Source: Raillietiella orientalis (Eukaryota). Taken from it: 64,000 nt of DNA. Numbering within the stretch: position 1 is the stretch's first letter; the number at the start of each line of letters is the position of its first letter. The DNA lies in the NCBI GenBank assembly GCA_036172245.1, contig JAYWIR010000006.1, positions 3,720,001 through 3,784,000 of the forward strand, written 5' to 3'. Below are positions 1-63,814 of this stretch, in pieces. The notes under the pieces were generated by a model that was not told where the DNA came from, did not search any database, and saw only the letters and a list, made by a program, of their open reading frames with translations. The position numbers were made by a program, and so were the translations under genes.

Positions 1-507
1 TGCTTCCGCACATGCAGCATAACGAAGAATAAAATCTCGACAACGAGTTGTTTGTCCAGTCTTAACTGTAGAAGTTAAATCTGTTAAGGGCAATCTTAAA
101 AATGGGTTAATATCCATATTTCTGCAACTAATTTACCACGGTTGGGTCTTAAAATACGTCCCGCACGATTACCAGCTGACGGGCAATATAATTATTCATT
201 GAGATGAAACTTGTTTTAACAATTGTAGCGATCGTTATTTCATCGTCCTAACTGGGCTCAACAGGTTCATACAGTTAAATAAACAACTACTTCGATATTG
301 CGCCCACTATTTTCAGAGGTTTTCATCCATGTGGAAACAATTTACAACTTTATCACCTACTTTACTGTAACAGCAAACATCAAACCAATGCTCCAATAAT
401 CGCGCATGGCTTAACCTTGCTGAAAATCAGTAGCAGTCCAGGAAAATAGGAAAACTCTTTCGACTATCTAGTACGAAAAGACAAATAGAACCAAACAAGA
501 AGTACAC

Positions 508-3500
508 TAGGGCGTTGGTGTTCCGCATCTTTGCCCTTCTTATCACGATACTCGTGAAGGGAGCGATGGTAATGCCCACCATGGGAACGGGTATCGGGGA
601 ACGTTCCCGTTCCTTTCAAACATTACCTCCAAGATCCTCATCTTTGTTTTCGCATGCAGGCCGGGCACCACCTTCTGCTTTCTCTAATTTTGATACAGCA
701 TAGGGCAGGTGAGAACGTGAAGCTGGTTTACCTGTCTCCACATGACTTGCAGAGCTCATCTTGGCTGTTGCCTGTCCAATATTTATGTCTGGAGCCACTG
801 AGAATTCCTCCGTGGTAGAACATGAGAACGTCATCCTGAGTGTCCGATAGTAGGTCGCTCCTCCATATCGTTGTGCTAACCACTAGCAGGTTCACATTCC
901 GAATCATCCCATAGCAGTTGGCAGCCTTGCCCAATGAGTCATTTTCTTTTTGCTTGTCCTTCATTTTCTCGCGGATGTTGGCCATGGTAATCAGACACCA
1001 CGTATTGGTTGCCTGATGAGTCTAGAGTTTGTGGGTACTCTGACTGAATCTTCCCGTTATTCTTGTGATGCAGCAGTGCAGTCGCGTTCTGTGACAGCTG
1101 CTACTCTGGACGAAGTGTTCGTAGTCATGGATGGTCATTCTTGGCCTTTGGAATATGCATTTCCAGGTGTTCCAGGAACCTTATAAAGTGCGGGATCACC
1201 ATTACCGGTTCTTTCTGCCACCATTCCTTGATTCGAGGCACGATTTTGAAGCGTTGAGCCATCACCAGTGCCTGCTTGCTCTTCTAGGTGGGGTCGATTT
1301 CCCCCCAGTCTCCATGTTTGCCTATGAGGACTCACGCCAGAACTTTCGACTTGTTGACCAGCTTCGAGTAGGCTCTCTGGCCCCAGTCGTTGATGAGATC
1401 CAGGAGTTGTGACACATCCACGTCGTCCATAGATTGTTGCTGCGATTTCAATCCCGGTCCCCTCTTCCCTCAGGCGCACAAGAGTGTGAGCCTAGCCCGC
1501 AGTTTGAACTTCTACAGAAGCTTCCGCTACATCTGTTCCACTTCCATGCTTGTCTTGTTCATTCGTCAGAAGGCGACCCGAAGAATACCTTCGGAAGGAG
1601 CACGTTGTTCCAAAAGCTAGTCCTCTGCTTCATGGTGAAGTCGATGTGGATGTTTCTTGTTGCTTCCTTTCCGAGTTTTCCCAAGATTTCTTTTCACTGG
1701 ATTGACAGAGCGGATGCAGCCCCGATGTGGATTTTCAGGTACTTGATGTCGTCCACCACTTGGAATCCTGTCTCCATTAATGTGGAGAGGTACAGGGCAG
1801 CAGTTGTGACTTCTGAGCGTTGATCTTCAAGTCCAATCCGTTTTCCATGGACTCGACTACACTGAAGAACGCATGTCGATCCCTCTCACCCTTCAGGAAG
1901 AAGGGAAGATTGTCCGCATACTCCAGGTGAGTGAGTCTCTCGTCGTCAATGACGATGCCTAAGGGGCCGCTTCTGTCGATCAGGGACAACACGGCCTCCA
2001 TGTAGCTCATAATCAGCATATGATTCCCCTTTCCATCTGAATTGCGTCTGTGTCTTCCATCGACTGAATCTTGCATTGCTGGTCTTACAATGTCATGGTG
2101 CTGTACTTGCTGAAGCATCCTGGGTAGCGCAGTTTCCTCAATATCTTCGGCAAAATTCCGTGATCGACGCTGACGAAGGCATTCCCTATAGCGGTGAAGC
2201 CCAGCACCAGGTTGTCGCTGAGGTATCACATGTAAACTGTGATCGCCTGGGCACGCCTCACGCTGTCAGACACGCGGAGTCCGGACAACGCGCATGTCTG
2301 CATTGGAGAGATCGTCGATTGCAACGTCGCACTTAAGCGGTTGACCCGGATCTTTGCTAGTCACTTGGCGCCCGTGTTCAGAATGAAGATTGGCTTCCAA
2401 TGAGTGACCTTCGACAGGTCGCCTCTCTTGGACAGCAGTCGCATCCTGCTTCCCGTGGAACGATTCCGGGAGCTTCCGTTCTTTCTGCACGCGAGGCATG
2501 AGCTCGTGGAACAGGCTTACAAGTAACGCTGATCGTGCGAAGCGATACGCTATCGGGGCCTGCTGCCACATCTTTGTGGAGTTCCGTGAGAGCTCTCTTC
2601 ACTTCATCAATGAACGTTTTCTCTTCCAGCCGTTCTTTCTTCTGGAGAGATAGTCGTTCTTGCAGGAATCGCAAAGAGACATCCTACTCTTCCCTTGACA
2701 GGTTCTGACTTCGGAAGTGGAAGACAGTGATCTTGGAATGTCCTCCACGATAACTTCCGACGTGTGGCGCAACTTGTCTTCGTACTGGATGCAGAAGATG
2801 TTTGTTGGCAAAGTGCGGAGAGAGACATGAATGAGGCGTGCAGGAGGAGAACCTCCTGCACGCCAACTTCTCTTTTGACAGATAGGAAGAACTGCTGTCT
2901 CTTGTACTGATTTCATGACCTCGAGAGGGAGTAGTCTGGGATGTTCGACTCTCACTACGCTTCCTGCCGTATTGCATGTTTGTAAAGAGATGGATTGTGT
3001 TTCAACCGGTTCCAGTCGTCGACTCTGCGGATGATAGTGTCCCGCAGGATCTCCTTGATGAGTTGCCAGTGACCGGGAAACGTGGCACACCATTCGAGCA
3101 TGCAGATGACCACTGTCATGAAGCCACTGTTCCGCCGAGGGTTTTCTATCTTCGAGGTGAACCGCAGCAGTGAGTGATTTGAGAGCAGGGTTTGAGTATC
3201 CCGGAAACCCTGAATGCAGGCCCCTACGTCCTCACTGTACAAAACTTGGTCAATCGGCTTGTGGCTGGTTGTTAGACACTGCAGTCCGAACTCGCCGTAC
3301 TGCGGCCAATACGTCCCTCCTCTAGCCCATGTGTCCTGCGTTGGTCTGCATGTCTTCGGGTGTTCAGGTCTCCCATGTGACGACGATGCGTGACTCTGCT
3401 GCGCAGCAAACATCTGCACGGCTTCCGCGGATCTATGTTTTTCGTAATGTGGCCCGTACACGTGAATCAGGAACAGCTGGACCTGACCAGGACATCAGAA

Positions 3501-3797
3501 CTCCGACGATGCAGTCGGGCCACAAGGAAAAGGACACCAGGACGGTGGACGCCATGTCGTTCTTCACGAGGATAGGCCCTCCTTTCGTCTTCTCTTCCGG
3601 GCTCATGAACAGCTGCTCGTCCAGACGTCCATCCAGTTCGAGGCTGATTTGGTGCCCATCTCGTGGGTTTCCTGCAGACACACGATGTCGTCGCTCTCGA
3701 TGTTCTGTGTGATCCTTTTCTTCTCCTGGATCCACAATCCACTGATGTTCCCGGAAGCGATTTTCGGACTCCTGCTGACGACGGGAAGGAGTTGATC
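508..3797 (-). pseudogene. ORF2 of element A (APE endonuclease + reverse transcriptase + zf-RVT), disrupted
   Basis: Fragments in track ORFs 2955-3461, 2378-2674, 1777-2229 and 728-985 are collinear with, and clearly homologous to, ORF2 of element B. Confidence 0.88.
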
Positions 3798-3804
3798 GGG
3801 ATTT

Positions 3805-5250
3805 GAAGGAGAAAGCTCCTAATCTTCTTTTTCTTCTTGGGAGGAGTCGATTGGTTGCTCCCAGCAGATTTTTCATCCGCGATGTTACTCCCAAACTCCT
3901 CAAAGTCGGATGTTTCTTCGTTATCCTTCTCCCGGACTAGACGGGCAGCACTGGTTCCTCTCCGGGAGTAAGGTAAGTCGAACCAGCTCAACTATTTTGT
4001 CTTTTGTCATGTCCAGCATGTGCTCAGCTTGCATCCGCATCTTCCCGTTCACTATTGTTTTTACGATTTCGTCGTGAAGCGCGAAGATGCGGAACCGAAC
4101 CTTTTTCCGCTTTATCCGGACGAGAAGCTTTTACGAGTATGGCCAATTCTTGCTCATACTCGGACGTTATGCTTATGCTTCTCCTCTTCGGTCGCGACGC
4201 TTTCCGCCGCCGCTACTAGAGGAGAAGTTTTTCCCCTACTTGCTGCGCCCTCTTGTGTTTGTTCTTCTTCTTTGGCTGGGCTTCTGGGAGACCTGGGTTA
4301 GTGGCGGCTCTAAGGAGCTCCACTTTTTTTTTGTTCTGCTCCTCTTGTTCCTTCGACAACAGTGCAGGCAGAGGAGTCAACTCCTGCGCCACAAGACACG
4401 CCGGGTACTTCTGGCATTCACGCTTAACGTGCTTCGATATTTTGCAGCGGTACCACTACGGAGGCCTCGTGCAATCTCGAATAAAGTGGCCCTATTGGCC
4501 CCACTTGAAACAACGTGCCTCCTGCTAAACGCTAAGCCTGTGTTCGAACTGCTTGCAGCCCGTGCAAAACATGCAAGAGATATCAGACCTGCACGTGTTG
4601 GGACTGCTGGTCGATGAACACTACCCCTGGGATTTTGGCATCGTCGAATAGCTCGATGCGGACCACGGCTTCTCCGACGATCTTCTTCATGTGGTTTCGA
4701 AACACAACCTTTTGAACTTCGCCGCACTGGGGGGAAAATTCCCACACGTCTTCCTGGTCGGAGAAGCCGTGCACACCGGTCAGGTAGGGTGTTGTGGCAA
4801 AGAGTTCTCCCACGCCACGCAAATGCCTCCCATCTAATATAATGCCCTGTTATATGAGACCTCTTTCAGTTCTTCGTGCGCGATGTAAACCGCGAAGCCG
4901 ATCGCGGACGGAACGATGACCTCAATCAATTTGAAATCCACATATTTACTGTGGAGCACGACGTGGACGTCTTTCACGTTGGATAGATACATCATCCCCA
5001 TCTTGAGGATCTGCTTTACTCCAGGGTCAGTGTCCGTACCAGTTTCTTGACCCGGGAAATTTCGAACATGGCGAACTTCGTCGACCTCGCCATTGTCTCC
5101 ACAGCTGCCTTCAGCATTGTTGGCTGCAACTCTGCTTCCTTCGCGTAAGACAAGAGCGGCGGCAGCGGTGTTGCCATAGCTGGCGCGGTTACATCCTTGG
5201 AGGCAGTTGGCTGGAACACTTCCACTGGTGGGGGAGGTGGAGCCATGCAG
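3805..5250 (-). pseudogene. ORF1 (gag-like nucleic-acid-binding protein) of element A, disrupted
   Basis: N-terminal Pro/Ala-rich stretch with LSYA; RRM-like segment (GEVQKVVF...GEAVVRIEL...IPGVVFID); degenerate knuckles CTGCKQFEH and CFKWGQ*GHFIRDC near 4470-4575; basic C-terminus PPKKKKK just before ORF2. Confidence 0.75.
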
Positions 5251-5391
5251 TGTCCTGTTCATCGAGGGAGTACCTTCAATTGTTTCTCCTCCAAACTACA
5301 GGCAGTCCAGGGAGAGTCCGGAGCAATGGGGATACTGTCCAAGGGAAAGAAATGTTCACACACTTCAGAACTGTCCTTTTTCACTTTTTTG

Positions 5392-5555
5392 CAGGAGTCC
5401 GCGCGAAAGCATTCTCTCAACCTAAAAATTATATTTCTTAGTAACCTACGTTGGGGGTTATCGCAGAGATCAGTCCAATCTCCGTGCAATGATCGAGCCT
5501 CACTCTGGAGGAATTTTCACCATGACCAAGATTGTCCCCATTTCCGACAAGCGGT
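5392..5555 (-). ncRNA. U1 snRNA-derived sequence (variant or pseudogene) forming the 5' head of element A
   Basis: Minus strand reads ...CCTCCAGAGTGAGGCTCGATCATTGCAC...CTGATCTCTGCGATAACCCC...ATAATTTTTAGG...GCTTTCGCGC...CCTG. It has the U1 stem-loop II with the ATTGCAC loop, SL III, an Sm site, a terminal TTCG-type SL IV remnant, and a span of 164 nt. The canonical 5' ACTTACCTG is not preserved. Confidence 0.85.
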
Positions 5556-5992
5556 GGGGTGAATTTATTAAACCAACAAAAGTCCTTACTCACTAATCAT
5601 GTACATTCACAATTTCACACTGTTTCTTGTCTTTGGAGTTCAATGCTTCTCCTCTTATACTATCTTTTCACTTTAGTTTTCGGGAGGTTAGGGGGCGGAG
5701 GGGTTCGTCCTTTGTGCCTGGGAGTACTCGTCCATCTTCATCAGGATGTAACGGTACTTCCAGGCGGCGATCCTGCCGCAGCTCCTGATCCCGATTTCCT
5801 TCCGAACAAGGCCACTGAGGATGTCCCAAGCCGGCAATTGTCGTCGCAGGGTATACATCTTAGCCCTTCTTATCACAATAGCTGTGATGAAGAGGGCCAG
5901 CGTAGTCAAAACCATCGGGTTGTAGAGGGGAACAACTCCTCTCCCCTGATACAATCCCCACAGGATCTCCATTACAGTCTTCCTCTGCAGGC

Positions 5993-6008
5993 ACGTCACC
6001 GCCTTCAC
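5993..6008. repeat. Left 16-bp target-site duplication ACGTCACCGCCTTCAC
   Basis: Identical to 6938-6953. Confidence 0.95.
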
Positions 6009-6937
6009 AAAACATTAGGAGCAGCAACGAGAGGGCAACGTGGGAAGTGTCCTGCCTCATCCGAGGCAGGAGAAAACCTTTAAAGGCGTGGACGACTCGG
6101 GAGCTAACGGACGCTGCCACCCCGAGCGTCCCGCCTCACGGACTTGCGCGCTGGGGAGAGCTGCTCGCAATACCTCCGGAGGAGATGAAGTGGCCCCCAG
6201 CGTGTTGGGATATCGGCACCCTTCCGTTAAAGTGGCAGGAGACGACGTTGCTATTTCTGCACTGGGAACTGTTAAGCAGAGCACACCTGTCTCACTGGAA
6301 ACTGGGGAATGTGGATGCCCGCTGTGTCGAGTGTGGTGAAAGGGAAACCTTCCAGCATCTCACCCTCGAGTGTGTCGCCCTGGTTGGACTCTGGAGTCGA
6401 ATCGCCCCAATCCTCCATCTTCCAGTAGGCGACCCAAAGGAAATTTACCGCCGCCTCTTTCTGCGTGACGGCCTGCGCCCCGCAGCGTCTCTAGCAGTCC
6501 TCTGCTGCGTGCGCGGCATCGTGCAAAGGTGGCACGCGAGAAGAAGAGGCCCAAGATGCAGGGACGCCATCCACTGGACGACGATCTCTTTGGAGACGGT
6601 GACAAGATGGCGTCTACCTCCAACGATAAAAGATGAACTTGACTGCATCCTGAATAGGAAGCGGAGGACCGACCCAGGCGCCCAGTGATCCCTTCCCTGC
6701 CCCCCACTCCCCCATATAACTGTTTCCCTCCCCATTATTTCTCTTTTTGTTTCTTTTTGTTCCAGTTTCCCCTTCCCCGCGCCTCGGGAAAGGACCTAGC
6801 CGGTGTCGGCACCGGCTCCCGACACGTCTGCCAGCGTAGGAAAACCAAGAGTTTTCCCACAAAAACATATGATTGACTTTATTAACTAATTTAATATTAA
6901 TTAGATTAATGAATGCCCCGGCATATCCGGGTGACAA
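6009..6937 (+). mobile_element. 5'-truncated non-LTR retrotransposon (ORF2 C-terminus with zf-RVT plus 3' UTR), inserted antisense into element B
   Basis: Flanked by exact 16-bp direct repeats. The frame is open from about 6011 to the stop at 6688 and encodes CVECGERETFQHLTLEC...W. A pyrimidine-rich, hairpin-containing 3' UTR follows. Confidence 0.9.
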
Positions 6938-6953
6938 ACGTCACCGCCTTCAC
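6938..6953. repeat. Right 16-bp target-site duplication ACGTCACCGCCTTCAC
   Basis: Identical to 5993-6008. Confidence 0.95.
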
Positions 6954-9900
6954 CGCGTTCCAATCAGGTCGCAGCGTGGGGCAGGTGAGTACGTGGAGTT
7001 GAGTTTCCACTTCTCCACACGCCCTGCAGAATCCGTCATGCTGTCTCCCGGTCCAGTGCCTCAGTCTGGAACCACTCAGAATGCCTCCGTCGTAGAACAA
7101 CAGGAGGTCGTCCTGAGTGTCCGGGGGTAGGTCACTCCTCGTGAGTGCAGCCCCACGGCCAGCACATTGGCATGCGCCGGGCCGTAGCGGCTCGAGGCTG
7201 CGTTGAGGGCATCAGGGTCTTGGTGCTTCTTCGAGGTTTCCACCCTGATGCTATCTTTGGTCATGAGCAGCCACGACTGATTCGGCTGCTCCTTCCAAAG
7301 TTCCCGAGTGCGATGATGAAGGAACCCCGCAAGGTCGTGGTCAGGCGATGCAGTCTCAGTTAGTGCCTGCTGGCACTTTTAGCGAACTGCTCGCACCGTC
7401 GAATGTTAAGTCTTGGCCTTTGGTTCAACCAATTCACTGTCTCCCGTGGGATTGGGATAAAGCGAGGTATCACCATGGGCAGTTCTTCATCACAGATTTC
7501 GCAGCTCCGAGGCACGATTTTGAGCCCTTGGGTTCTCACCAGTGCCTGCTTGCGCTTCCATGTAGGGTCGATGCAAAGCCACTGTTCAGTGGCGCCTATG
7601 AGCGCTGACATCAGGCCCCTCGAGCTGTTCAACAGCTTGGAGTACGCCCGGTGCGCTGCATAGGGCCAGTCTTCCCAACTTCTGGTGAGATCCAGGAGTT
7701 GCGCGCATCCATGCTCTCCACGGAGTGTTGCAGCAGCTTCATCCCGGTCCCACTGTGCTCGCGAGGGCGGCACAGAAGTTTCAGCCGAACTCTGGGTCGA
7801 TATTCCCGCCAAAGGATCTTCCTCTGTAACCTCTCCAGTTCCGCCTTTGTCTTCTTGTCGATTCAGCAGAAGACCGCTCCGTAGAACTCGGACTACCTTG
7901 GGAAGGAGAACTCCATTTCACAAGGCAGCCCTCCGCTTCATGTTGAAGTCGACGCGGGTGTACTTGGTGGCTTCATCGGTGACCTTACCCAGGATCTCCT
8001 GCCACAGGCAGCGAGACGCGGTCTCGTCGCCTAAGCGGATTCCCAGGTATTTGACGGTGTCTGCCTCTCGGAATCCGGCCTCTTGCAGTGCGGAGAGGTC
8101 CATGATCCCGATTGGCAGCAGGTGGCTCTTCTGGATGTTGATTTTGAGTCCGAAACCTTTCTTCATCTGCTTGATCACACCTCGGAATGCTTCTTGATCT
8201 CGTTCGTCCTTCAGGAAGAACAGCAGATCGTCCGCCTACGCAAGGTGGGTCAGCTGTTGGCCGTGGATTCGGATTCCTTGGAGGTGGCTGCCCCGATCTA
8301 CAATCGCGGACACCACCTCCATGTAGAGCACGAACAGCATCGGGCCCAGGGCGTCGCCTTGGCGAACACCCCTTTCCATCCGAATTGCTGCCGTCTCCAG
8401 CCCGTTCACCTTGATCTTCACATGTTGTTCTCTCAAGGTTCATTCCAGGTAGTGCATGAAGAAGCTTGGGAAGCCCAGTTTCCTAAAGATCTTCAGCAGC
8501 ATCTCGTGGTCCACGGTGTCGAACGCCTTCTCCATATCCGTGAGCCCTAGAACCAGGTCTTCGCCTACGTATCGGCAATAACCGATGGTGGCCAGGGCGC
8601 ACTTCACATTCGCAGACATGCTTCATCCGGGCACCGCGCATGTCTGCTTGGGAGACACGACGGATGGCATCGCCATGCTTAAGCGGTTGGCCCAAATCTT
8701 GGTCAGCCACTTGGCATCCGTGTTGAGGATGGTGATCGGCCGCCATTGGGTGACTTCCAGGAGGTCGCCCCCCTTTGGCAGCAGTTTCATCCTTCCCTCG
8801 TGGAACGATGCAGAGAGTCTTCCTTCTTCCTGGATGGCGATTGTCAGTTCGTGGAACAAGCGAACGTAGGCGTGCAGGTACCGCCGATAGTGCGTGATGG
8901 GAACACTATCGGGTCCTGCCGCCACATCCTTGAGCAGTCCAGCGAATGCACTCTTGATTTCCTCAGGGGAGATCTTCTCTTCCAACTTCTCATGGTGTTC
9001 CTTCTTAACTCGCGGGTGCAGGTACCGCAGGATGTTCGCTTGTTCCGTCGGGCACAGATAACGCCGTCGGAATTGGGAGGCGTAATGGTGGTGGAAGGCC
9101 TCCGCGATGCCTTCCGACGTGTGCCTGACTTCGTCTGCGTGCCGGATGGAGAAGACGTCGCTGACGATGTTTTTCCTTTCCAGCACTCCAACTTCCCCTT
9201 TTACAGTCTTGAAGACGTACCGGTTCTCGTACTGGGGCCAGTATTTCGAGAGCGAGCGATCTTGCTGTCGTTCCAGCTCACGGTACGCTTCCGACCTCAT
9301 CTTTCTGTCGCCGAACTGCATGTTGCTAAACAAATGGATTGTCCGCTTCAACCTGTCCCAGTCGGTGACCCTGCGAATGGTGGTGTTGCGCAGGATCGCC
9401 TCGATCAAATCCTGGTGACAGGGATGCGTCTCGAACCATGCGGGCATGCATACTAATGCAGCCCGCGCGCCTTTCTTCCTTCGGGGGTTCTCCGTTTTCA
9501 ACGTGAATCGCAGCAAGGGATGATTCGAGAGTACGGATGGAGGCTCTCGGAAGCCCTGCACACGAATCGCGATGTCCTCGCTGAACAGGACGTGGTCGAT
9601 CGGCTTGCTGCTGGCGGTCAGCCATTGCAGGCCGAACTCGTCCGACAGCCACCGATAGGCCATTCTTCCCCGTGCATCTTTGGTCTGGGTGATGTTTTCC
9701 AGGATGTTGAAATCTCCCACGACGATCACGATGTCCTTTGCCGAGGCCTTGCTGCGTAGCAGAACCTGTACGGCCTCCACGCAGCGATGTTTGCCTCGGT
9801 GCGACCCCTACATGGTCACCAGGAACAGATGAACGTTTCCGGACCAGGACGTGCCTACTCCGACGATGCGGCCGGGACAAGGTGAAAAGGTTTCTAGGAT

Positions 9901-10164
9901 GGTGTGTGCGATCTCGTTTTTCACGAGAATCGCCACGCCTTTGGTCCTTTTGTGGCCCGGGCTCAGGAACAGCTGGGCGTCTAGTCGTCGTTCCAGCTCT
10001 GGGATGGTCCGATGTTCGAGCTCGTGGGTTACCTGAAGGCAGATGTGGTCACGCTCGATGGTCCGTGTGACCATCCGTCTCTTCTTCTGGTTCCGCAATC
10101 CATTCACGTTCCAGGAGATGATGTTGACGCTCCTGGCAGTCGACAGGAAGGTGGCCATCGGGGA

Positions 10165-10949
10165 TTAGTTGGAGGATCTGCTCTTCCTCTTGCTCCTCGT
10201 CTTCTTGGGGGACGTTGTCGTCCTCCTCTCTTCTCCATGCTGGTCACCCAAGTCACTTTCGGACCCGATATAGTCGGTGCTGTCGGCGACCGAGTGCCTC
10301 GTTTCGTTGTTAACGCTTTGCGGAATTGCATAAGGCAGCTCCTCAAGCTCCCAGCTGGCGTAGCGCTGTTTGATTTCCAGCATCCTGCTTTCCAATTCGA
10401 AGCGTTTGGCCTCGTCTGGAACGCGCTCGTTGATGGAAATCTCCACCCGGCAGATGCCTTCCAAAGTTTCCGCTCTTGCTTCCCTGGTTACTGCTTCCTG
10501 CACCATTTTCTGTACTTCTGCTACTTCTGCTGTCACGTTGGCAACTTCCGCCAACTCTGCAGCTGCTACTCCCACCACTTCCTTGGCTGGCTCGGCAACT
10601 TCCGCCGGCGCTTCCACTGTAGGTTGTGGTGCTGTCTTTCTTTTCCCCTTGGTGGGCTTCTTTTTCACTTCAGTGGGTTCTGCCGCCTTCCTGGCAGTCA
10701 GCTCGGCCGAAGGAGCCTTCTTTTTCTCTGCTGTTTCCACTTCTGGTTCCACCTGTAGTGGTGGCAACCTGTAGTGGCGGCTGCATTCGAATTGTAAGAT
10801 GGCGCCGCCGCTGCTGCCGCTGCGTACGACGACGGGTGGGTCGCTACGGGCGTCGCCGCGGCCGTTGAGACGGACGCCGCTCCCGCGCGCGCTGCATGCG
10901 GGCCTTCCGCCGATGCCGACGCAGGAGTGGAGACGTCCATCGCTTCCAT
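10165..10949 (-). pseudogene. ORF1 of element B, apparently internally deleted
   Basis: The N-terminal MEAMDVS...SSYAAAAAAAP frame joins out of frame near 10760 to an Ala/Glu/Lys-rich C-terminal frame ending KRKSRSSN* just before the ORF2 ATG. The RRM/knuckle core seen in element A is absent. Confidence 0.7.
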
Positions 10950-11094
10950 GTTCCCCCGGCGGGGCGAGTCCACTCTGGCAATGTCCTCCTCCGCACTCTG
11001 GGTTGTCGGGGAAAGTCCACTGTCTGTACGGGAAACAACACTTCTCACTCCACACTCAAAAACACTCTTTTATTCGAAACTTTATTCGAAACTC

Positions 11095-11241
11095 CGCAGT
11101 CTTCCAGCCTAAAAATTATGCTTCCGAGTAACCCAAGTTTGGGGTTATCGCAGAGGTCAGCCCTATCGCAGTGCAATGATCGAGCCTCACTCTGGAGGGA
11201 TCTCCACCATGACCAAGATCGGCTCGAATCCAGATATTTAT
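11095..11241 (-). ncRNA. U1 snRNA-derived sequence (variant or pseudogene) forming the 5' head of element B
   Basis: Minus strand begins ATAAATATCTGG (canonical U1 ATACTTACCTGG). It continues with a GATCT/AGATC stem I, CCTCCAGAGTGAGGCTCGATCATTGCAC, CTGACCTCTGCGA, SL III, GCATAATTTTTAG (Sm site) and GACTGCG, then loses similarity at the SL IV loop. Confidence 0.87.
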
Positions 11242-12350
11242 TTCAGCAAACAACAATGTGAAACTATGAAATTTTTTCAATCAACAATTCGATTTATAAA
11301 CCATAGAGATCCTTTTGTTTAGTTACTCTGCTTTTGAATTTTATTAGAGCCGATAGTTTCCAGTCATAGTTCCACTCTTCCAATCTGTTACAAAAGTGAG
11401 CAACTATGATTCCTACTCTGGCCTACTCTTCAATTGTGTCTTTTAACGGGAAACACTAATCATTTAATAAGTATTTAAGTAATTAATGTTTTTAGAACTT
11501 TCCGTTACTCATTCTAAATTTTCCAAGTTAAAAGTTGAAAGGAAGGCATAAAAACAAATCATTCATTCAAAAAAGCATTATTGAACAAGGCTTTTTCCTC
11601 CAAATTCATTTTCTTAATGGCCTTTCTTCGGAATTTAAAGCAGAAACATTTTCAAGATTTGGAGATTTGGGGGGGGGGGGGGTTAAACTACAAAAGTCAT
11701 GAGTCAGTCTTTACATGCATTTTGTATTTCCAATTCCCGAAGTTTTGTCATCGTTTAATTTTTATATGGATTTTCCCTTGGATCCATGGTTCTTGAATGA
11801 TAATATTTCTGAAATGTGGCAAAATTGCGGAAAACTTTTGTTTCGATCATTTTTTCAAAAATGCGTGCGCGTTATTTGGCACTCGGCAGCGCTCATTTCA
11901 AATAAATGCGCTGCGCGTTTTCGTTGTTAGACGTTTACGTATTTGTCATCTTGGAAACACGTAAGTTTCGAATAAGTTCTCGATAAGATTAAAGTGAGAA
12001 GGAAATCAGAAAACAAAGTTGGAATGCAGTCTGTTAGATCTCAATTTGATCCTTAAATGAGAGATCGTGGTATTTAAACTGTTCTACATCGCTGTGAAGC
12101 AATTAATTCCATGAATTAAAAATACATGAATGGAGAGGAAAACCATTTCATTATAGTTTTCAATTAATGTTTTCCTTGAGTTTTTAGGTATGCTTCCTTC
12201 ATTATGCATGGAATTGCCACATAGCTCAAAGTGTTAATCAATGTTATGTAGAATTTACAGTTTTTCATAAGAACTTTAGGGTTTTGAAGAATAATGCATT
12301 TTTAAGGCTCATCATAACAGCTCGATCTGAAATACTATATTGTAGAAAAC

Positions 12351-14852
12351 ATGTCCCCAAACAAAGGTTCTGCCACATCTTTGGGATTGAATAAAGCAAT
12401 CAAAACTCCTGGAAAGGGAATGAAACATCAATCTGAAAAGTAATTTGCCAGAAAGTTAAAACTGCTACATCTTGCATTGTAAAAATTCAGTAGGGTCAAA
12501 AGAATCCCAAGTGGCTATTTTTCCAAGAAGAATGTGAAAGCTTGCACTCCTTTATCTGAGTCAAACCATCAATATGGTGTGTGCAGTGAATATTCCATAA
12601 CACATGCAAAAAAAGAAATTAAAAGCTGTAGTACCCCAAAAAGTAGTAAGAGGTAAGTTTCAGAGCATTGGTGTTTCACTGGGGTTACACTGCTTAGTCA
12701 ATTAAAAAAGAATTCAATAAACCTTATATTTAGCCATAAGTATCATATATTTAATTGTAAATTAATGTGCAGGATAATTTCGCTTTGAAGTGATATGTTC
12801 ATTTTGGTTTCATGCAATTTTCCTTGATGCTTAACATATTCATTTCTTCTAAAAGGAAAGCTGGAATACTTCATGCAGGAAATCCATGTAAAAGTTATGA
12901 GTTAAATTATAAGATAAGAAAACCAAATGCACAATTAGCACCTACAATAGCTACTGAAAATGTGAAGGCTGATCAAGTAGGTGAAGTGGGGGGATGATCT
13001 CTGGAATCATGGAAAACATTTTTATTTAGAAAATGCAAGTTAAAAAGCTGAGTAAACTCACAACCTCTAAAGAAAGTGAGGAGTTAGTCACATTTCAAGG
13101 AGCACCAGATCATGATCAGCAGATGGTTAGTGTATAGGGTGTAATATACGATTTGTGATTTGTTGCAAACAGAATGATGGAATGTGCATCAATGCAGAAT
13201 TTGAAAATGGTGCTCAACTGGGTACTGCTTATAGTCCATGTTCACTGGATTCTTTGAAAATGTTTCAAGCAAGCAAGGAGCACTCACAAAAGTAGTTTCT
13301 CAAATCAAGTATTTCTTGCATTCCACAATTCTTTTCAAGTGTTCGTAATTTTGGGGGTTTATTCATATTTTGATCTATTTCCTTTGTTTCTGCTGAATTG
13401 CAGTATGACACTTGTATTTGTTTATTCTCCCCTAGAACCAGCGAAGAACTAAAAAGTATTCTGGATGATTTGATTCATCAACAAAAACAAATGCATACGC
13501 TACCACTAGCCAGTGAGCATGAGGTCATGGTGCATAAGTATAAGAGTGTAACTAATTCCTTGGTGCAGTTGATTTTAAAATCAAATCTGCATCTCATTTC
13601 ATTGACACAGGTCAGTATTGGATTAAAGTGAGAATAAAATCAGAAAACAATGCTGGAGTGCAATCTGTCAGACAAAGAAGTATGCATTTCATTTGATGCT
13701 TCCAGGAAATCTTTAATATGTCTGAAGCAAAGAAACAGCAATGTCTGAACATTGCATCAGAATGGGAAACCACAAAATTGCTCAGATCTCATTCGGAATC
13801 AAAAAATAAGGAAAATCGAGAAACAAATTGCAGTAGTAGCAGTTTGCAAAGCCTTGTGCCAAAAACTCATGATCAATGCAAACGGCAAGAACAGGACTTA
13901 AAAGGTGAAATAGCTGCCTTGAAGCAGGAGATAGAGGAATTGATTTCCAAACATGAAAAAGAGGTTGATCAAAAGATAAAGACTCTGTTTTAATAAGCAA
14001 TCATTAGACCCAAGAATGGAGCCAATTCAAAAAAGACTTGTTGACTACTGTTCAGGCTGCAAATAAGAATCAACAAGAAGAAGAAGAAAAGGTAAAACAT
14101 TTAGAGGCCAAAATTAAGAGCTTGCAAGAGGCTCAAATGCAGGAACCTAAAGATGGAGGCAATGCAACACCAATGAAACAAGATTCACCACATAAAGGTT
14201 TGAGAATTTAGATTTAATTAGTTTCATGCATGTATTTGTCAAATTTCTTTGGAAGAGGCAATATGATTTTTACTACCAAAGTAATTACCCAGTTCATAAT
14301 CATTATTGTTAGTTCCAGAAAATAAAATTTTATACATCTAACTGATAAGTCTTAGATACTGATATTTATTAATTAGATGCTATTCTCTTCCAGGCTGCAA
14401 AGACTCGATTGTCTCTGACAGTGATTCTGATAATGCTCTACTTACTTGGGTTCAAGAAAAACTAGTGGGTTACAAGGTTACAGTAAAGGATTTCAGCAGT
14501 GGTTGGAATGATGGTCTAGCCTTATGTGCACTTCTGCACTCTTGTTTTTCTGGAACAGTTTCAGAAATTCTTCTCCATAAACCAAATCTGCAATCAGCAT
14601 TGGCTATTACAAATAGCTTGGGTATTATGGTGTGTATGCTCATGAGTAAATATCTTCCTCACAAGATTTTAGGATCAAAAAGATACAATGGCGTTCGATC
14701 AAAGAAATATCAAGACATATGTTGGAACTATTCATAAATATTTTCACAATTTAGAGAACCAGAACTTGCATGCCCAAGCTGATAGGTCAAAAATGAAACA
14801 AAAGGCACTTGAGGAAATTTCTCTGCAGGGTGACTGCAAAACAAAAAATTAA
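12351..14852 (+). CDS. Cytospin/SPECC1-like coiled-coil + C-terminal calponin-homology protein, multi-exon; 5' exons uncertain
   Basis: A coiled-coil exon (~13707-13963) splices over a 44-nt intron to [19 protein letters not shown], resembling the SPECC1-family EWxQFQxDL..V..AN motif. The CH exon reads [37 protein letters not shown]. The last exon reads ...[12 protein letters not shown]... with TAA at 14850-14852. The ATG at 12351 is tentative. Confidence 0.7.
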
Positions 14853-21600: not shown

Positions 21601-22584
21601 TTAGTTTGATTGATTTAATTTGATTTGTGAGAAATTTGAATTTCACAGGATACTTTGGAAGAAGAATGAAATTGCTGACTATGAAGCCACCACATTTTCA
21701 ATATTTTACAGCAATACTGTATTTTTATTGCTTATAATTATAGCATCATTTTATGTCTTCAGTTCTTTTAAACCTCCACTGTATCCTTGGCATTTGTCAA
21801 TTTTGTGCTCATGCAAATTTTTGTGCGATGTTTCATTACTGTTCTTTACCGGAATTGAGGTTTTTGGAGGAGGCCACTTTGAACACTGATATATCTTTGC
21901 ATTTATAATCCACAAATGGACTGGCATATCCATTGTAACGAATCAGATAATTAAGTTAATGTCGTTGTAAAATCTTTCGAGCAGTCTTTTCCTTTTTTAT
22001 AAGAGAGGAAGCTTGATTATTTTTTGTATTCGACTCGTATGTTTTTTTTTTATTTATTTAATGCACATTTATTGAGACAGACTTTTGCAGTCAGCACAAG
22101 CGTCGCCATGGAAAACGCATCGAAAATTGATCGTTTTGGATGTTGAATTCCCATCCCTAAACCATTATTTTCACTGAAAATATTTGTTGTGCCACTATAG
22201 AGTTTCGTGTTTTGGCTTCATGCAAGGTACATTACATGAAAGGACGCGGAGCATTCTGTTGTCCCGTGTGTTTAGAAATCGGGTGTACGATATTTATGTA
22301 TTTCTCATGAATTTCATAGCTGCTGACTTGCGTTCATGTGCCATACAGTACAGTACCTGTGCGAAAATCCATTCAGTTTCCTATTTAATGACTTGACTAC
22401 ATCTACATAACCTGTATTTTTCACGCAGTTCTCAACTGTGTGTGTGTGCGTTTTTTTTTCTTTGGCAATGTGTCGCATCCATTGTGTATACACAGTTTTA
22501 TCCTTAATGGTACTCAGAAACTACACGTTGTCAGTGGGAGGAGCCGGCGTTTTGCTCGCGCTGTTTTCGACAGGCAGCGAGTGA
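18619..22584 (+). CDS. SSR3: Translocon-associated protein subunit gamma (TRAP-gamma); exons 18619-18751, 21373-21592, 21649-21780, 22518-22584; 183 aa
   Basis: The spliced translation contains [71 protein letters not shown] and [21 protein letters not shown]. Exon lengths sum to 552 nt, in frame. Confidence 0.96.
21781..22517 (+). other. U12-type (minor spliceosome) GT-AG intron in SSR3
   Basis: 5' site GTATCCTT at 21781. Branch-point-like TCCTTAAT at 22501-22508 lies just upstream of the CAG acceptor ending at 22517, with no polypyrimidine tract. Removing the intron restores the conserved SSR3 C-terminus. Confidence 0.92.
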
Positions 22585-25500
22585 GCAGGCCTTTTCGTCC
22601 AGTAAGCAATAAAACCTTATCAAATGCACCGTGAGAGTCGCCCTCCCCAGTCCGGAGCTCAGCTAAGAAGGAAAAGGATCATTGGGGTAGGGGGTGGTGG
22701 GGGTGAGGAAGGAAGTCGAGACGTCTGTCGGACGCACCGCTCTTGAGGTCATCCTCTGTTGAGGTTGCAAAGAAGGAAGAGCGTTCATAGCAACGGTTGC
22801 AAGGCTCTCCAGAAGTACCATATAAAGTTTTTTTGTTCTTTTTCTTTTTGTTTTTATTTGCGTTGCTCATTCATTTCAAGCGTGCATTTCCTAACTTCTT
22901 CCAAAACAAGTTCAAACAAGCACGGCTTCAGCATCAGCTCGCACAAGTAGGTCACTGTTTTTTTTTTTTTTTTTTTAAAAAAAAGTACACCATTTTTACC
23001 CCTGAACACTTGCGTATTGGCATAAGTGTTCGCGAAACGGTTGTACGTTGCCGTTGGAACGAGGAAACGGCTGAATCGTAAAGCATTGCAGGAAACTTTA
23101 TGTGGTAAGGTACTAAGGCTGCGATTAAACGAGTTCTAATGAAGCGCGTAAGGCCGATACATCATAAACAATAAAATGGCAGCGATAAATAAAATCAGGC
23201 GTCGAAGGACACTGCCACGAAGCTTCAGAACGCCTGCGGGTGCCGTGTTGACGGGTGTCGCCGCAGCTCCTTCTCCAGGTCAAAGGAACAACAGGCACGC
23301 AGGCGTGAACCTCGAGCAGTGCAAATATAGGTCATCATCGCACGTTTTTTCGTACACGAATTCCCTGTAAACTGCAGGGAAGCGCCCACACCCCATTTAT
23401 TGCAAGTGCTGCTACCTCGACACGAATTATCTCCACGCTGGTCACGTGAGCAGAACACGAGATCGGCACGGATACGAAAAAGGCCCGAAGCACAACTTAA
23501 TCCCCAGCATTTCTTATATATTTATACTCCTCAAGGGCGTGCACAGGGAAGAGGCCGATACGACACGCTCGAATTTCCAAGGTTCACCGTTGTTCAAAAA
23601 AGCAAAGACATTTCTGGAAGGGAGCCTAAATTTAAAGCCACCTCTTTTTGCAGGGCAGCCAACGTTCAAGCGCTCCTACCGTTTATTAATTTGCAGTTGT
23701 TGCGGGAGATGCTTTCCTCAATCTCGTGGTGTGACGAGCAGCATCGGTAAGATTATTATTACTGCCTCCCCATTTTTTGTGCGCGTTATAAGAAACTTCT
23801 GGATGTCTTGGGGAAATGTCAGTCGTGACGGCGAAGGAGCCGCGGATGTATTTTTAGTGTCGAAACGTTTTGCGGTTGCATTCACGGTTGATGGCGGAAA
23901 ACACGAATGAATGCTCAGTGCTCGCGGTTCTTGCGCGAGCTGCTTCCGGGGTGTCGGCGGTCGACACCTCGGGGCGGCGGCGGCCCTCAAGCCGCGGAAC
24001 ACGCGGGTGCTCCACGCAGAGTCGACGGGCGTTCCGTGGATAAAGCCGTGGAAATTTTGCACAGTTGGAATCCGAGAACGAATGCCCGTTTCGTGTTCTC
24101 TCGACTCTTGTCAGATCTACTGGCTTCGTTTACTTCCACCCCCAGCCCTATAAAATAAGCCGGGGGAGGGGGGGGCACTCCGTCGAAATGTCGGGATTTG
24201 CGAAAGTGTTCCGTCATGGGAAAGGTTTGGGAGACGCTACCTCGATGTGTGCCGTTGGGATTGGATGTCGGTGGTTCTTAGCTGTCGACGGTTCAGGTCG
24301 CATCGCCGACGCATCGTGCGGAGCTTTCAAACTGTTCAGCAGTGTCCCGGTGCACAAACACATGGAAGGAGAGTATGGAACAGGGGAATGAGTGAACCCG
24401 CGTTCATCATCCTGGATCTCTAACCAACGGTGGCATCCGTGATGTCACAGCAGCGTCAAGTGTTGCACCCTTGTTGCCAGTTACCTACAGTTGCGTGGAA
24501 GCCAAGTGGTGTTGCCGCCCTCGAATTTGCCCGAGGGCTTTCCAGGAACGAAAGGTCTAGGTGGGAAGCGGAACTGCCCGAACTGCGGTCACCGGTCGAA
24601 AAGGCACCCGTCGGCTGCTTCTTCTTTTTGATGTAATAAACGATTTCCTCGAGTGCTTCTTTGAAGGCATCGGAAACCGGTTTCTCTAAATGCCTTCTTT
24701 GTGTAGACCACCACGGCATTTAGAGAGAGACAGGAAACACAAGGAACGCGATGGAGCTTTGATGCAACACTTGATGGAGCTTGTACATGTACAAAGTCGA
24801 TGTGCAGACTTGATAAGAGCGTCTCGAAAAATTATGGATTTTTTTTTTTTTTTAGTAGGAAATTCCAATCCCTACGGAATCATAGCACTGCGAGTTTCAG
24901 GATGCAAAACTTTGGGAATTCTCAGGACTCTGATAGCCAAGTGTGGACACACACACACATCCTTGGTGAACTGTCCCCGCTCTCCGTTGGTTCACCTGAA
25001 AGGGACTTTACACATCCATTGACAAGTAAAAAGTTGTCGAGGTGCGATTCCAGCCGAGTCTCGTTAGACCTGTTGTTCCACGTAATTCAATGAACCCGAA
25101 GAAGTTCCGAGTTTCGCGTGCACGGAAGGAAAAACACGACTTCTGGAATTTTCCAGTTGTTTGTTTACTGTGGAATTAGCAGCAGCTGAGTTCGTACAGC
25201 GTGGTGATGTGATCGGCATTTCGTGCGCGCTTCGTGGTTTGGTTCTTTGCGGTGTACAATCTCAGGTAGGAGAAAAAAAGAGGAGGGGGGGGGGATATCA
25301 CAGATTCATCTCAGCAGTTCCGCATCTTCATGTGTTTGTTGGACCATTATCACGTTTGTGATGATTTCGCGATTTTTCTGGTTATCAGCGAGTACATTAA
25401 TTTCGCACGCTGCTCGACGGTCAATTTGTTTCTTTCAAAGTCGCAGGTAGGATTTTTTTCGACCTCAACAGGCCCTCGCTAAGAGTACGTGCAACTTTGC

Positions 25501-26714
25501 TGTACACGTGTGAAAATGGATGTGCCTGAATCTTCAGGATTCCACTTGCAAAATTCATCCGTTAGCACACAAGTAAATCACGCTGGGTTTTTTTTTTTCT
25601 TTGGATCCTTAAGCTTCGAGGAGTTTTCCTTGGAATTCCCCTCAGTATTCGTGCAGGCATTTTTTTTTTTTTTTTGCTCGAGGGTGGTCGAAAATTGGGT
25701 TCAAGATACCGATTTCTTGGAAATCCATGCAACCGTGGCATCAGGGGATGAGAGGAAGAAGTTGTTATTCCGGGGAAAGAATACTTTTCCAGGCCGAGAA
25801 ACCATGCAGACACACACACCAATGGCAGTGTTTGAATTCTCTTTGCCGAGTGTACGCGGGTCGCCAGCCTTTGCGTAACTTATAAATGAACTGCGTTTTT
25901 GGCACTGCGTGCAGAAAGCACCGTAAGCGTGAGGAACCGTCTCACCCACGTGATCGAAATCTCTTTGCCTCGGTACGCTTCGTATTGACTTCCCTTCTGT
26001 CCTGTCACCTGAGTGAAGCTTGCTGATGTGAACCCGTGGTCAAGGTAAATCTGTTTCCTGAAAATATCTTTTGCTTGCCTTTGTCCAACCCGCGGAATCT
26101 GCTCGATGCTTTTCCACCTTTTGGAATCCGCGCTATAATTCAAAACCCGAGTGGTGGGAGCTCCGCAGTAAATCTTCAAAGGCTGCTGCATGCGTACTTC
26201 CCGTCAGCAAGCTCAGGCGAATGGTCCTGCGGCTGCAAAGAGGAAAAAAAATTCAGTTGAAATAGTTGAAAATTCGGGGTCATTCGGGTATCGTTCGGCG
26301 TCTTCTTGCCTTGTTCCCGTTGCCGTCGGGTTCCCCCCGAAATGGGGCAGAAGAAAACCTGACGAGGTTTGGTGGTGCGGGGCAGCAGGCTGCTTCGACA
26401 TCGCAAGCATCCTAACAAAGTGTGCTCTCGAATGTTTCGGATTGAGATGCTGCAACTCGTAGGTGTGTGCCTGCCTAGGGACGTAAGTGTTCTTTGGCCC
26501 GCATTTTTCAAATGGCAGAGAGTTTCGGCAGTATGAAATCCCAGTCCCTTTGGTCCCAGCCGTTCTTTGTTTCTTCCAGAAATTGTTTTGCGGGCGAATT
26601 CATGCTTTATCGTAGGGGAAAAAAAAAAAAAACAAAAGTGACAGAGGAAGAAGAAGCTGACAGAAGTTTCTGGAGATTCAATGGCATTTATCCAAAATGC
26701 AAGATTTTTTTCCC

Positions 26715-26726
26715 GTGCGTGCGTGC

Positions 26727-26779
<53 letters not shown>
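26715..26779. repeat. Compound (GTGC)n(GT)n microsatellite
   Basis: Seen directly in the sequence. Confidence 0.97.
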
Positions 26780-26780
<1 letters not shown>

Positions 26781-30578: not shown

Positions 30579-30582
30579 TATA

Positions 30583-30613
<31 letters not shown>
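30579..30613. repeat. Interrupted (TA)n microsatellite
   Basis: Seen directly in the sequence. Confidence 0.9.

Positions 30614-43899: not shown

Positions 43900-43935
<36 letters not shown>
43900..43935. repeat. Poly(A) run of about 36 nt, preceded by a poly(C) run
   Basis: Seen directly in the sequence. Confidence 0.9.
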
Positions 43936-43937
<2 letters not shown>

Positions 43938-44499: not shown

Positions 44500-44685
44500 T
44501 GACAATTTTATTGAAAAATACTGTATGGACGTACATTCAAATAAAAAATACATTTCTCGAAATTGTATATTTACTGTATATTTCAAACTGTATATATGAT
44601 CATCACCATTGTATAATGTGTGAATGATAAAAATTTTTATGACGAATTAAATAAAATAAACTTTAATCAATACAAATAACTTGCT
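44500..44685. terminator. AT-rich island with polyadenylation signals on both strands; probable 3' end of Mi-2 and of a plus-strand transcript
   Basis: Minus-strand AATAAA (tttatt) near 44507-44512; plus-strand AATAAA near 44540 and 44650-44660. The island sits in GC-rich DNA just downstream of the last recognisable Mi-2 exon. Confidence 0.5.

Positions 44686-45153: not shown

Positions 45154-63814
<18,661 letters not shown>

Follow-up and report, generated by a model that had tools for sequence, protein, structure and literature searches.

Two tandem L1/Tx1-type LINE copies carry a U1 snRNA-derived head within their retrotransposed unit

Several mobile elements are associated with the small nuclear RNAs of the spliceosome. 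Namely, Keno (Tx1 clade, U2), Utopia (U2) and the DNA transposon Dada-U1 interrupt the snRNA gene at a fixed site, where pieces of the gene form their flanks; target-specific insertion is common, but not universal, in the Tx1 clade. A different arrangement, in which the snRNA sequence forms the 5' terminus of an autonomous LINE, is on record for the crocodilian Tx1-Mar elements in a two-sentence remark of Kojima 2015 (PMC4494074), which gives U1 heads for Tx1-2_Crp, Tx1-2B_Crp and Tx1-4_AMi and a U2 head for Tx1-11_Crp. In its passages on these and related elements, the same paper names Mariner-N4_AMi as the preferred target of Tx1-Mar, proposes template switching as the origin of the heads of Tx1-Mar and of the crocodilian SINEU elements, a mechanism known for L1 with U6, and describes mammalian snRNA-L1 chimeras as dead, one-off copies that join the snRNA to pieces of L1, Alu or processed pseudogenes (PMC4494074). 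The initial annotation of the DNA studied here had taken the U1-headed layout to be undescribed, which the crocodilian families contradict. The layout has been reported earlier only in crocodilian Tx1 LINEs, and what we describe is a further occurrence in a distant invertebrate host.

The window analysed here, a stretch of 64 kb, holds one such locus with two copies, one per family, lying in tandem on the minus strand and referred to as element B (11241-5555) and element A (5554-384). Their features are collected in Table 1. Both elements are old, inactive and decayed: over the part of ORF2 that was covered, B (2730 nt) has 5 stops and 2 frame changes, and A (1140 nt) has 6 and 3.

Table 1. 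Features of the B-A tandem and its flanking duplication, in the reading direction of the elements.
Feature	Position	Strand	Evidence or remark
5' target-site duplication copy, TTGTTGTTTGCTG	11244..11256	-	12/13 match to 383-371
Filler AA between 5' duplication copy and U1 position 1 of B	11243-11242	-	
B U1 head, less decayed	11085..11241	-	RF00003, full model 1-166 (cmscan)
B remaining 5' UTR	10951..11084	-	homologous to A UTR (global alignment)
B ORF1, ATG 10950, at least one frameshift	10165..10950	-	ORF list; no Pfam domain
B ORF2: endonuclease of APE type, reverse transcriptase and a candidate CCHC motif; in-frame stops, frame changes	6938..10164	-	
Nested 5'-truncated 3' fragment of another LINE in the B ORF2 C-terminus	6009..6937	+	
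B ORF2 C-terminal remainder (stop 5688-5690) and 3' UTR (5687-5555)	5555..6008	-	
A U1 head, more decayed	5392..5554	-	RF00003, 53.3 bits
A remaining 5' UTR	5263..5391	-	global alignment with B UTR
A ORF1 region, ATG 5262, broken, ~675 nt longer than that of B	3801..5262	-	no Pfam match
A ORF2: endonuclease, reverse transcriptase, putative CCHC remnant; heavily decayed	427..3800	-	
A 3' UTR, without poly(A) tail	384..426	-	sequence reading, bounded by duplication
3' target-site duplication copy, TTGATGTTTGCTG	371..383	-	

The Rfam covariance model of U1 (RF00003), which the initial annotation had named as the check to be made on both heads, gives significant matches in each. In particular, the head of B scores 83.9 bits (E 2.7e-19), above the gathering score of 69.5 bits, while the head of A stays below it at 53.3 bits, with E 2.9e-12 in a 1-kb search and E 1.9e-10 when the whole 64-kb window is searched. 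Across the 64 kb, Rfam returns two matches in all at E<=0.01, and these are the two U1 heads. Both are minus-strand matches in the sense orientation of the LINE ORFs, and the claim that U1-like sequences stand upstream of ORF1 in both elements is in this way borne out; the distance from head to ORF1, put earlier at about 150 nt, comes to approximately 134 nt in B and 129 nt in A when the ATGs are read from the sequence. Over their cores (5409-5532 and 11096-11219), blastn aligns the two heads at 84.7% identity, 105/124 with zero gaps, which is exactly the figure previously reached by hand count.

What has been kept in both heads is the Sm site, stem-loop 2 with its loop and stem-loop 3, and what is absent from both is the end that pairs with the 5' splice site. 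The loop of stem-loop 1 reads GGUCAUGGUG in both heads, against GAUCAaGAAG in the Rfam consensus, and the 5' end of the B head has 3 mismatches to the 12-nt consensus AUACUUACCUGG. The start of the A head (its first ~15-22 nt) is barely U1-like or alignable, and over positions 1-22 the two heads match at 9/22. Since the stem-loop 1 loop is off consensus in both heads and the 5' end is off consensus in B, the source was not a standard working U1; the host's own U1 could itself carry the odd loop. Neither head shows the 5' end and stem-loop 1 loop that the consensus gives for a working U1, and neither has an external promoter, as the duplication adjoins the B head, 2 nt upstream, and the 3' UTR of B adjoins the A head, leaving no space for a U1 promoter at either. 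Judged by these sequence features, the head is a splicing-dead derivative of U1, the odd loop of which is conserved between the two families even though its source was not a standard working U1.

Of the 36 Rfam pairs, 31 are canonical in the B head and 27 in the A head. There are 19 differences between the head cores, and in 14 of them B has G/C and A has A/T. Fifteen differences were polarised by eye against the Rfam consensus line, the consensus state being found in B for 11 and in A for 2, and five of the differences disrupt pairs in A alone. The G/C-to-A/T bias, the predominance of consensus states in B and the broken pairs in A indicate that the divergence of the heads is mostly post-insertion decay of A, and consequently that the heads of the two families were nearly identical at insertion. 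Minimum-free-energy folding of the heads is no better than that of shuffles (z 0.01 and -1.10), and RNAalifold on the two heads gives a non-U1 fold with 1 compensatory pair. Note that snRNAs often give minimum-free-energy folds and z-scores that lend no support to the true fold.

Beyond the head, the two elements are considerably further apart. The DNA of ORF2, compared by blastn between 696-3800 (A) and 6972-10162 (B), is 64% identical over 3276 alignment columns, the range being 64-70%, with 82 gap openings at the 70% maximum, and at the protein level tblastx finds pieces that are 40-63% identical. The UTRs that follow the heads reach at most 72% identity with 17 gap openings, and their global alignment has a z of 9.1, a score reached by 0/500 dinucleotide shuffles. 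Between the two ORF1 regions tblastx detects no similarity. The earlier description of UTR and ORF1 as unalignable thus stands for ORF1 and falls for the UTR, and as homologous UTRs come after the heads, the architecture of head, UTR, ORF1 and ORF2 is common to A and B. The head core is better conserved than both the UTR and the ORF2 DNA (Fisher p 0.01 and 3e-4), and the head is the best-conserved part of the elements. A 25-nt match of 92% joins the B remainder (5880-5856) and the tail of A (550-526).

A target-site duplication with 12/13 matching positions encloses the whole B-A tandem, one copy stopping 2 nt short of U1 position 1 of B, the other standing directly after the 3' end of A. It is located in T-rich host DNA, and a match of this quality was reached by 11/2000 and 6/1000 shuffles and by 0/90 decoy host segments. 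On either side the host DNA is AT-rich, and neither a LINE nor a transposase signal was seen there. Within the tandem, the sequence of the B 3' UTR passes straight into the A head with no gap. As the duplication encloses both elements and the B 3' UTR abuts the A head, the heads lie inside the retrotransposed unit; they belong to it, and are neither U1 genes in place nor a split target. The initial annotation had held that duplications placing the U1 outside the element would speak against its proposal of an autonomous LINE lineage with a U1-derived 5' module; the outcome was the opposite, and at this locus the proposal is supported by the 12/13 duplication and by the junction of the B 3' UTR with the A head.

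Several other boundaries were tried and rejected. The best separate duplication for A alone is 9/10 at offset 12, reached by 438/1000 shuffles, and that for B alone is 8/10, reached by 144/1000 shuffles. An insertion of B into the A head with a duplicated U1 segment was likewise discarded, since positions 7-22 of the two heads, compared by eye, match at only 8/16, and what could be a degenerate third duplication copy at 5581-5568 is no better than chance. As for the tandem itself, the enzyme, on reaching the 5' end of an A RNA, may have jumped onto the 3' end of a B RNA in the course of one insertion, or a second insertion may have taken place into the same target site. That A is more decayed than B fits a single co-insertion poorly, unless a copy that was already dead supplied the A RNA. 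The B-A tandem within one duplication is also a candidate for natural RNA-to-RNA template jumping between two LINE families.

How did two LINEs come to share such a head? The best reading, in which our confidence is about even, is that the head has been inherited in the LINE lineage and kept by selection. We hold with similarly middling assurance that A and B represent two related families of L1/Tx1-type LINEs whose transcripts begin with the U1 head, followed by a UTR of ~130 nt, ORF1 and ORF2. The head would have been captured once, in the ancestor of both families, by a template switch in which the reverse transcriptase left the LINE RNA at its 5' end and continued on a U1 snRNA from its 3' end, and the U1-LINE chimera would then have become a master copy. 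Since then, selection may have retained the head as an snRNP-like 5' module, which would probably supply binding of Sm-core or U1A-type proteins to the LINE RNA and in this way affect its stability, the definition of its 5' end or its nuclear trafficking, with no role in splicing. The Discussion of PMC4494074 states that U1 genes have no known internal promoter, and for this reason the head does not explain how the LINE is transcribed. A further-reaching version, possible but doubtful in our view, is that an invertebrate LINE lineage has turned a captured U1 into a splicing-dead module, by means of which its RNA enters snRNP assembly and nuclear import, independently of the crocodilian Tx1 elements; if true, LINEs would have adopted the capture of snRNAs repeatedly, as an adaptive strategy and not by accident.

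That said, purifying selection at nearly all 124 positions is a strong demand, and two sequences give almost no evidence of covariation, with 1 compensatory pair (12/122) between the heads. What is more, heads that were nearly identical at insertion once the decay of A is discounted, on bodies that differ by ~30%, are also expected from repeated capture of one host RNA. Namely, each full-length insertion could have received a new head, with the reverse transcriptase habitually jumping from the 5' end of the LINE RNA onto an abundant variant U1 and no inheritance in the lineage. An end-to-end jump always yields the same junction, so that the common junction of A and B does not count against such re-addition; the B-A tandem in one duplication suggests a jump-prone enzyme, and recurrent 5' addition of U1 and U2 to SINEU has been inferred by Kojima 2015 in the part of that work dealing with SINEU (PMC4494074). 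However, given the non-consensus loop in both heads and the off-consensus 5' end of B, one would have to assume an abundant splicing-dead variant, and the A head is decayed like the A body, which argues that the two travelled together throughout the decay of the body. On balance, we consider re-addition at each insertion to be unlikely.

A residence in U1 genes, where master copies would sit downstream of a U1 or variant U1 and be co-transcribed with it, the copy in the window being an off-target insertion of read-through RNA, strikes us as quite improbable, even though it would provide the promoter that the head alone does not and would explain a conserved head if the U1 array were homogenised. 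Many Tx1-clade families are described as target-specific, with Keno and Utopia targeting U2 genes (PMC4494074, PMC4640811, in their accounts of these families), and R2 is known to be co-transcribed with its target, a possibility discussed for SINEU as well (PMC4494074, in the corresponding passages). At this locus, by contrast, there is no U1 3' of A, and the duplication leaves no place for a promoter ahead of the B head; with these and with two U1 matches in the whole window, the earlier suggestion that the elements target variant U1 genes has found no footing here. In addition, the 3' end of B joins the A head at, or close to, its 5' end and at no fixed internal or 3' site, and a non-splicing head outside the element should drift, whereas the head is the most conserved part. 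There is, finally, the question of whether the association is one of chance, with ordinary U1 genes or pseudogenes lying in place upstream of unrelated LINEs, or with a spurious similarity to U1. One locus was observed and the score of the A head, 53.3 bits, is under the gathering score of 69.5 bits; but the E-values of the two heads (2.7e-19 and 2.9e-12), the orientation, the distance to ORF1 and the homologous UTR junction that both elements have in common, the duplication 2 nt from U1 position 1 and the position of the A head directly after the B 3' UTR make a chance association barely credible. Inheritance of the head within the lineage is the reading that we prefer.

Compared with crocodilian Tx1-Mar, as that group has been described, the present elements are likewise autonomous APE-type LINEs with a sense U1-derived sequence as the 5' terminus, the origin of which is thought to be template switching, and in both cases transcription is unexplained. 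They differ in their host, here an AT-rich invertebrate genome whose CHD gene looks like that of an arthropod, in the best relatives of the A and B ORF2, which are only ~30% identical, in the insertion into AT-rich DNA with a 13-bp duplication, which is not Mariner-N4_AMi as far as seen, and in the presence of two families ~30% diverged with a nearly identical head. SINEU also is a retroposon with an snRNA-derived 5' head, possibly added repeatedly; it is, however, short and non-autonomous, whereas the head here stands on full-length elements with ORF1 and ORF2. The mammalian U6/L1 chimeras share with our locus an snRNA copy fused 5' of LINE sequence within one duplication, and the same mechanism is proposed for the capture here and perhaps also for the B-A tandem. 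One-off chimeras are arbitrary and usually truncated fusions, while here two full-length elements of different families have homologous UTRs and an equivalent junction, with a head that is a splicing-dead U1 derivative. As with Keno, Utopia and Dada-U1, a mobile element is associated with a spliceosomal snRNA, but no snRNA gene is split: the U1 lies whole inside the duplication, full length at the 5' side of each element and there only, with no U1 3' of A.

Searches for further occurrences gave nothing within their scope. A 22-mer identical in both heads has 0 matches in metagenome contigs and 0 in genome contigs, and a 29-nt pattern of stem-loop 3 with 3 N has 0 matches in metagenome contigs. 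At the level of titles and abstracts, none of the papers listed in a literature search describes an snRNA-headed LINE from arthropods, and PMC10886601 does not mention snRNA. The informative points of this locus are the distant host, the position of the head inside a target-site duplication, and a head that has been conserved far better than either the UTR or the coding DNA of the two families. They make testable the question of whether an snRNA head is a selected module, which might serve for instance in RNP assembly, stability or return to the nucleus, or only the by-product of a reverse transcriptase that is prone to jumping.

As regards the class of the elements, ORF2 has the order of endonuclease and then reverse transcriptase that is typical of L1/Tx1-type APE LINEs. 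Fragments of the B ORF2 match Pfam Exo_endo_phos (E 1e-4 and 0.0048) and RVT_1 (E 1e-4), and the A ORF2 matches RVT_1 (E 0.0066), all of these matches staying under the curated cut-offs owing to the broken frames of the fragments. An exhaustive HMMER search finds 280 relatives of ORF2 at E<=1e-10, none of them beyond ~30-41% identity, the best, from turtle and teleost, being ~30% identical. The PDB matches to ORF2 are exclusively to L1 ORF2p (E ~1e-14), and the ESM Atlas returned generic endonuclease and reverse transcriptase clusters only. Accepting these similarities of the predicted proteins as a guide, the elements fall in the L1/Tx1-type group of APE-endonuclease LINEs, and the assignment is to nothing narrower than that group. 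A C-x2-C-x7-H-x3-C motif can be read in the B ORF at 6906-7211, where Pfam zf-RVT has no match. For ORF1, Pfam has no match in A or in B, even with the threshold relaxed to E<=1; by eye, ORF1 of A shows a candidate RRM-like stretch in the minus-strand ORF 4583-4849 and a candidate degenerate CCHC knuckle in the minus-strand ORF 4216-4455.

Every tblastn match obtained with 60 ORF2 homologs falls inside A, B or the LINE fragment nested in B, and the other GC-rich islands of the window have no match from these homologs. The nested fragment lies at the breakpoints of the homology between A and B, has a tblastn match on the plus strand at 6137-6418 and shows zf-RVT (E 7.6e-6) in the ORF at 5906-6688 (+). 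In a repeat search it proved to be flanked by an exact duplication of 16 bp, 5993-6008 and 6938-6953 (100%).

Both U1 snRNA-like heads that the initial annotation had placed at the 5' ends of two Tx1-like LINEs (B, 11241-5555, and A, 5554-384, both on the reverse strand) are real, since Rfam cmscan of the window at E<=0.01 returned two matches only, both significant matches to the U1 covariance model (RF00003), on the reverse strand and covering the full model (see the table). Behind each head there follow, on the same strand, a 5' UTR, ORF1 (ATG at 10950 in B and at 5262 in A) and ORF2, the last with endonuclease and reverse-transcriptase signatures that are fragmentary and below the curated Pfam cut-offs (E 1e-4 to 7e-3) because the reading frames are broken. 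Both elements are dead copies; 5 stops interrupt the frame and 2 frame changes occur over the 2730 nt of B that could be tracked, as against 6 and 3, respectively, over 1140 nt of A. HMMER gave 280 relatives of ORF2 at E<=1e-10, none closer than about 30-41% identity; the closest with named hosts are unnamed or hypothetical proteins from a sea turtle and a deep-sea fish, and the only solved-structure relative is human L1 ORF2p (E about 1e-14). In the window, tblastn detected no LINE-like coding signal beyond A, B and a small forward-strand fragment inside B.

A and B can be aligned in three stretches: the heads (positions 23-146 of each, without an indel), ORF2 (A 3800-696 with B 10162-6972, 64% DNA identity) and a tail motif (A 550-526 with B 5880-5856). 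The 929 extra bases of B that constitute the nested fragment lie exactly at the breakpoints of this homology and are bordered by an exact 16-bp target-site duplication (5993-6008 and 6938-6953). Past the fragment, ORF2 of B continues to a stop at 5688-5690, and the ensuing 3' UTR of 133 nt ends at 5555, directly adjoining the first base of the A head. The ORF1 region of A is about 675 nt longer than that of B (10165-10950, reverse strand); by eye, an RRM-like stretch and a degenerate CCHC knuckle, both absent from B, can be made out in the former at 4216-4849 (reverse strand), and the latter looks like a short coiled-coil or basic protein only, with neither reading confirmed by Pfam.

Features of the two LINEs, their flanks and neighbouring host genes
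Feature	Position	Strand	Details
Head of B	11085-11241	-	RF00003, 83.9 bits (gathering score 69.5 exceeded), E 2.7e-19
Head of A	5392-5554	-	RF00003, 53.3 bits (under gathering score), E 2.9e-12 (1 kb), 1.9e-10 (64 kb)
5' duplication copy	11256-11244		TTGTTGTTTGCTG, 13 bases; then AA, then U1 position 1 of B
3' duplication copy	383-371		TTGATGTTTGCTG; directly past the short 3' UTR of A
Nested 5'-truncated 3' end of a third LINE, in C-terminal region of B ORF2	6009-6937	+	zf-RVT E 7.6e-6; tblastn
Calponin-homology exon	14363-14734
TRIM-NHL-like frame	33631-39243	+	1871 uninterrupted codons; RING finger, NHL repeats
CHD3/4 (Mi-2)-type chromatin remodeller exons	47404-59908	-	PHD, chromo, SNF2, DUF1087, CHDII_SANT-like, CHDCT2

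Do the heads belong to the inserted DNA? The two copies of a target-site duplication, one before B and the other behind A, match at 12 of 13 positions. When the 520-nt 3' region was shuffled, 11 of 2000 runs reached this score, as did 6 of 1000 in a second series, and none of 90 host-DNA decoy segments reached it. Candidate pairings for a separate duplication of A alone or B alone were no better than chance. The simplest reading is, therefore, that a single duplication brackets the entire unit, from the head of B to its 3' end and on from the head of A to the 3' end of A. It follows that the B head is the start of inserted DNA and that the A head is preceded by the 3' UTR of B, with no promoter, which together rule out the heads being U1 genes in place. 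What is more, cmscan found no U1 in the window on the 3' side of A, so that the split-target-gene pattern is absent, unlike in Keno and Utopia, which split U2 target genes. Of the two origins originally proposed for the heads, a U1-derived 5' module is accordingly supported at this locus by the duplication, while targeting of U1 genes is not supported here, although master copies elsewhere could still fit it.

The tandem itself may have arisen from two insertions into one site or from a single one, with the enzyme reaching the 5' end of an A RNA and switching from there to a B RNA at its 3' end. If true, the latter would be a direct sign that both RNAs started with the head; the heavier decay of A is a mild argument against it, unless a copy that was dead beforehand supplied the A RNA. 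A short motif, TTGGTTT(R)AT, is common to the 3' ends of A and B (5570-5579 and 379-388, reverse strand) and resembles the start of the duplication (11244-11256, reverse strand), albeit without statistical support, and may represent microhomology for priming at the target.

The head is far better conserved than the remainder of the two elements. In particular, its core (positions 23-146) is identical at 105 of 124 positions with no gap opening, exactly the hand count reported initially, as compared with 9 of 22 at head positions 1-22 (Fisher p = 4e-5; gap openings not applicable), 72% of ungapped columns in the UTR with 17 gap openings in about 180 nt (p = 0.01), and 70% with 82 gap openings in an optimised global alignment of ORF2 DNA (p = 3e-4). 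The UTRs had been described as not alignable by eye; they are in fact homologous (z 9.1, with 0 of 500 dinucleotide shuffles reaching the score), and are nevertheless much less conserved than the heads. At 14 of the 19 core differences, B has G or C and A has A or T, and of the 15 that could be polarised by eye against the Rfam consensus, the consensus base is found in B at 11 sites, in A at 2 and in neither copy at the other 2. Of the 36 pairs in the Rfam structure, 31 are canonical in B and 27 in A, with five pairs broken in A only, through G-to-A or C-to-A changes, and one compensatory pair. Such polarity, along with the pairs lost in A alone, shows that the heads diverged mostly through neutral decay of A, the copy that looks older. 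At insertion the heads were therefore nearly identical, although between the two families the UTRs and ORFs were roughly a fifth to a third different.

Where could such a head come from? Both copies keep, as identical runs, the Sm-site stretch (AUAAUUUUUAGG), the loop of stem-loop 2 (CAUUGCAC) and the stem of stem-loop 3. That said, the loop of stem-loop 1 common to both, GGUCAUGGUG, departs from the Rfam GAUCAaGAAG, the first 12 bases of B differ at 3 positions from the Rfam consensus AUACUUACCUGG, which may not match the host's own U1, and the first 15-22 bases of A are barely U1-like. Judged against this consensus, the off-consensus 5' end and loop argue that the heads descend from a U1 derivative unable to act as normal U1. 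Near constancy of such a head across LINE families that have otherwise diverged is what one would expect of a module under selection for a LINE-specific role, and because it is a non-normal U1 that is so held, we rank inheritance with selection first. However, the same near-identical, non-consensus heads would be predicted if each were copied afresh at insertion from an abundant variant U1 RNA, or if master copies were transcribed jointly with variant U1 genes of a homogenised array. The common U1-LINE junction does not separate these readings from inheritance, since a template jump from end to end would in every case link the 3' end of U1 with the 5' end of the LINE. All of these conclusions concern one locus and two copies.

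The initial annotation knew of no description of the arrangement, but U1-headed LINEs have been published before, among the Tx1 families of crocodilians, in Kojima 2015 (PMC4494074), where snRNA heads are ascribed to template switching and transcription is left unexplained, U1 and U2 genes having no internal promoter. According to Kojima and Jurka 2015 (PMC4640811), reports of snRNA-gene-targeting elements had up to then been limited to Keno and Utopia (U2), Dada-U1 and Dada-U6. Among the literature matches listed, at the level of titles and abstracts and with most subscription journals, Repbase and Dfam outside the coverage, none reported snRNA-headed LINEs outside crocodilians. The present host, judged by its CHD3/4 gene, is an invertebrate and probably an arthropod, not a crocodilian, and A and B represent a second, probably independent occurrence. 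What is new is this occurrence in an invertebrate, the direct evidence from the duplication that the head moves together with its LINE, and a conservation of the head far above that of the other parts of the two diverged families.

GC-rich islands intersperse the otherwise AT-rich window (background about 31-36% GC). The RING-NHL frame is 65-70% GC, as opposed to about 32% for the genome background, and the 1119-codon open frame on its opposite strand (33832-37188) is probably a by-product of this richness. Islands of 45-60% GC at 22000-33000 and 39000-47000 are rich in long open frames on either strand; those scanned with Pfam gave no match, and none is similar to LINE reverse transcriptases. 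These islands may represent further repeats, or the RING-NHL locus may extend into them. Finally, the large CHD3/4 exons suggest an intron-poor invertebrate gene; for one of them, the top two matches are marine eukaryote transcripts (71-72% identity), and the closest named relatives are arthropods (ostracod, mite, millipede, centipede and insects).
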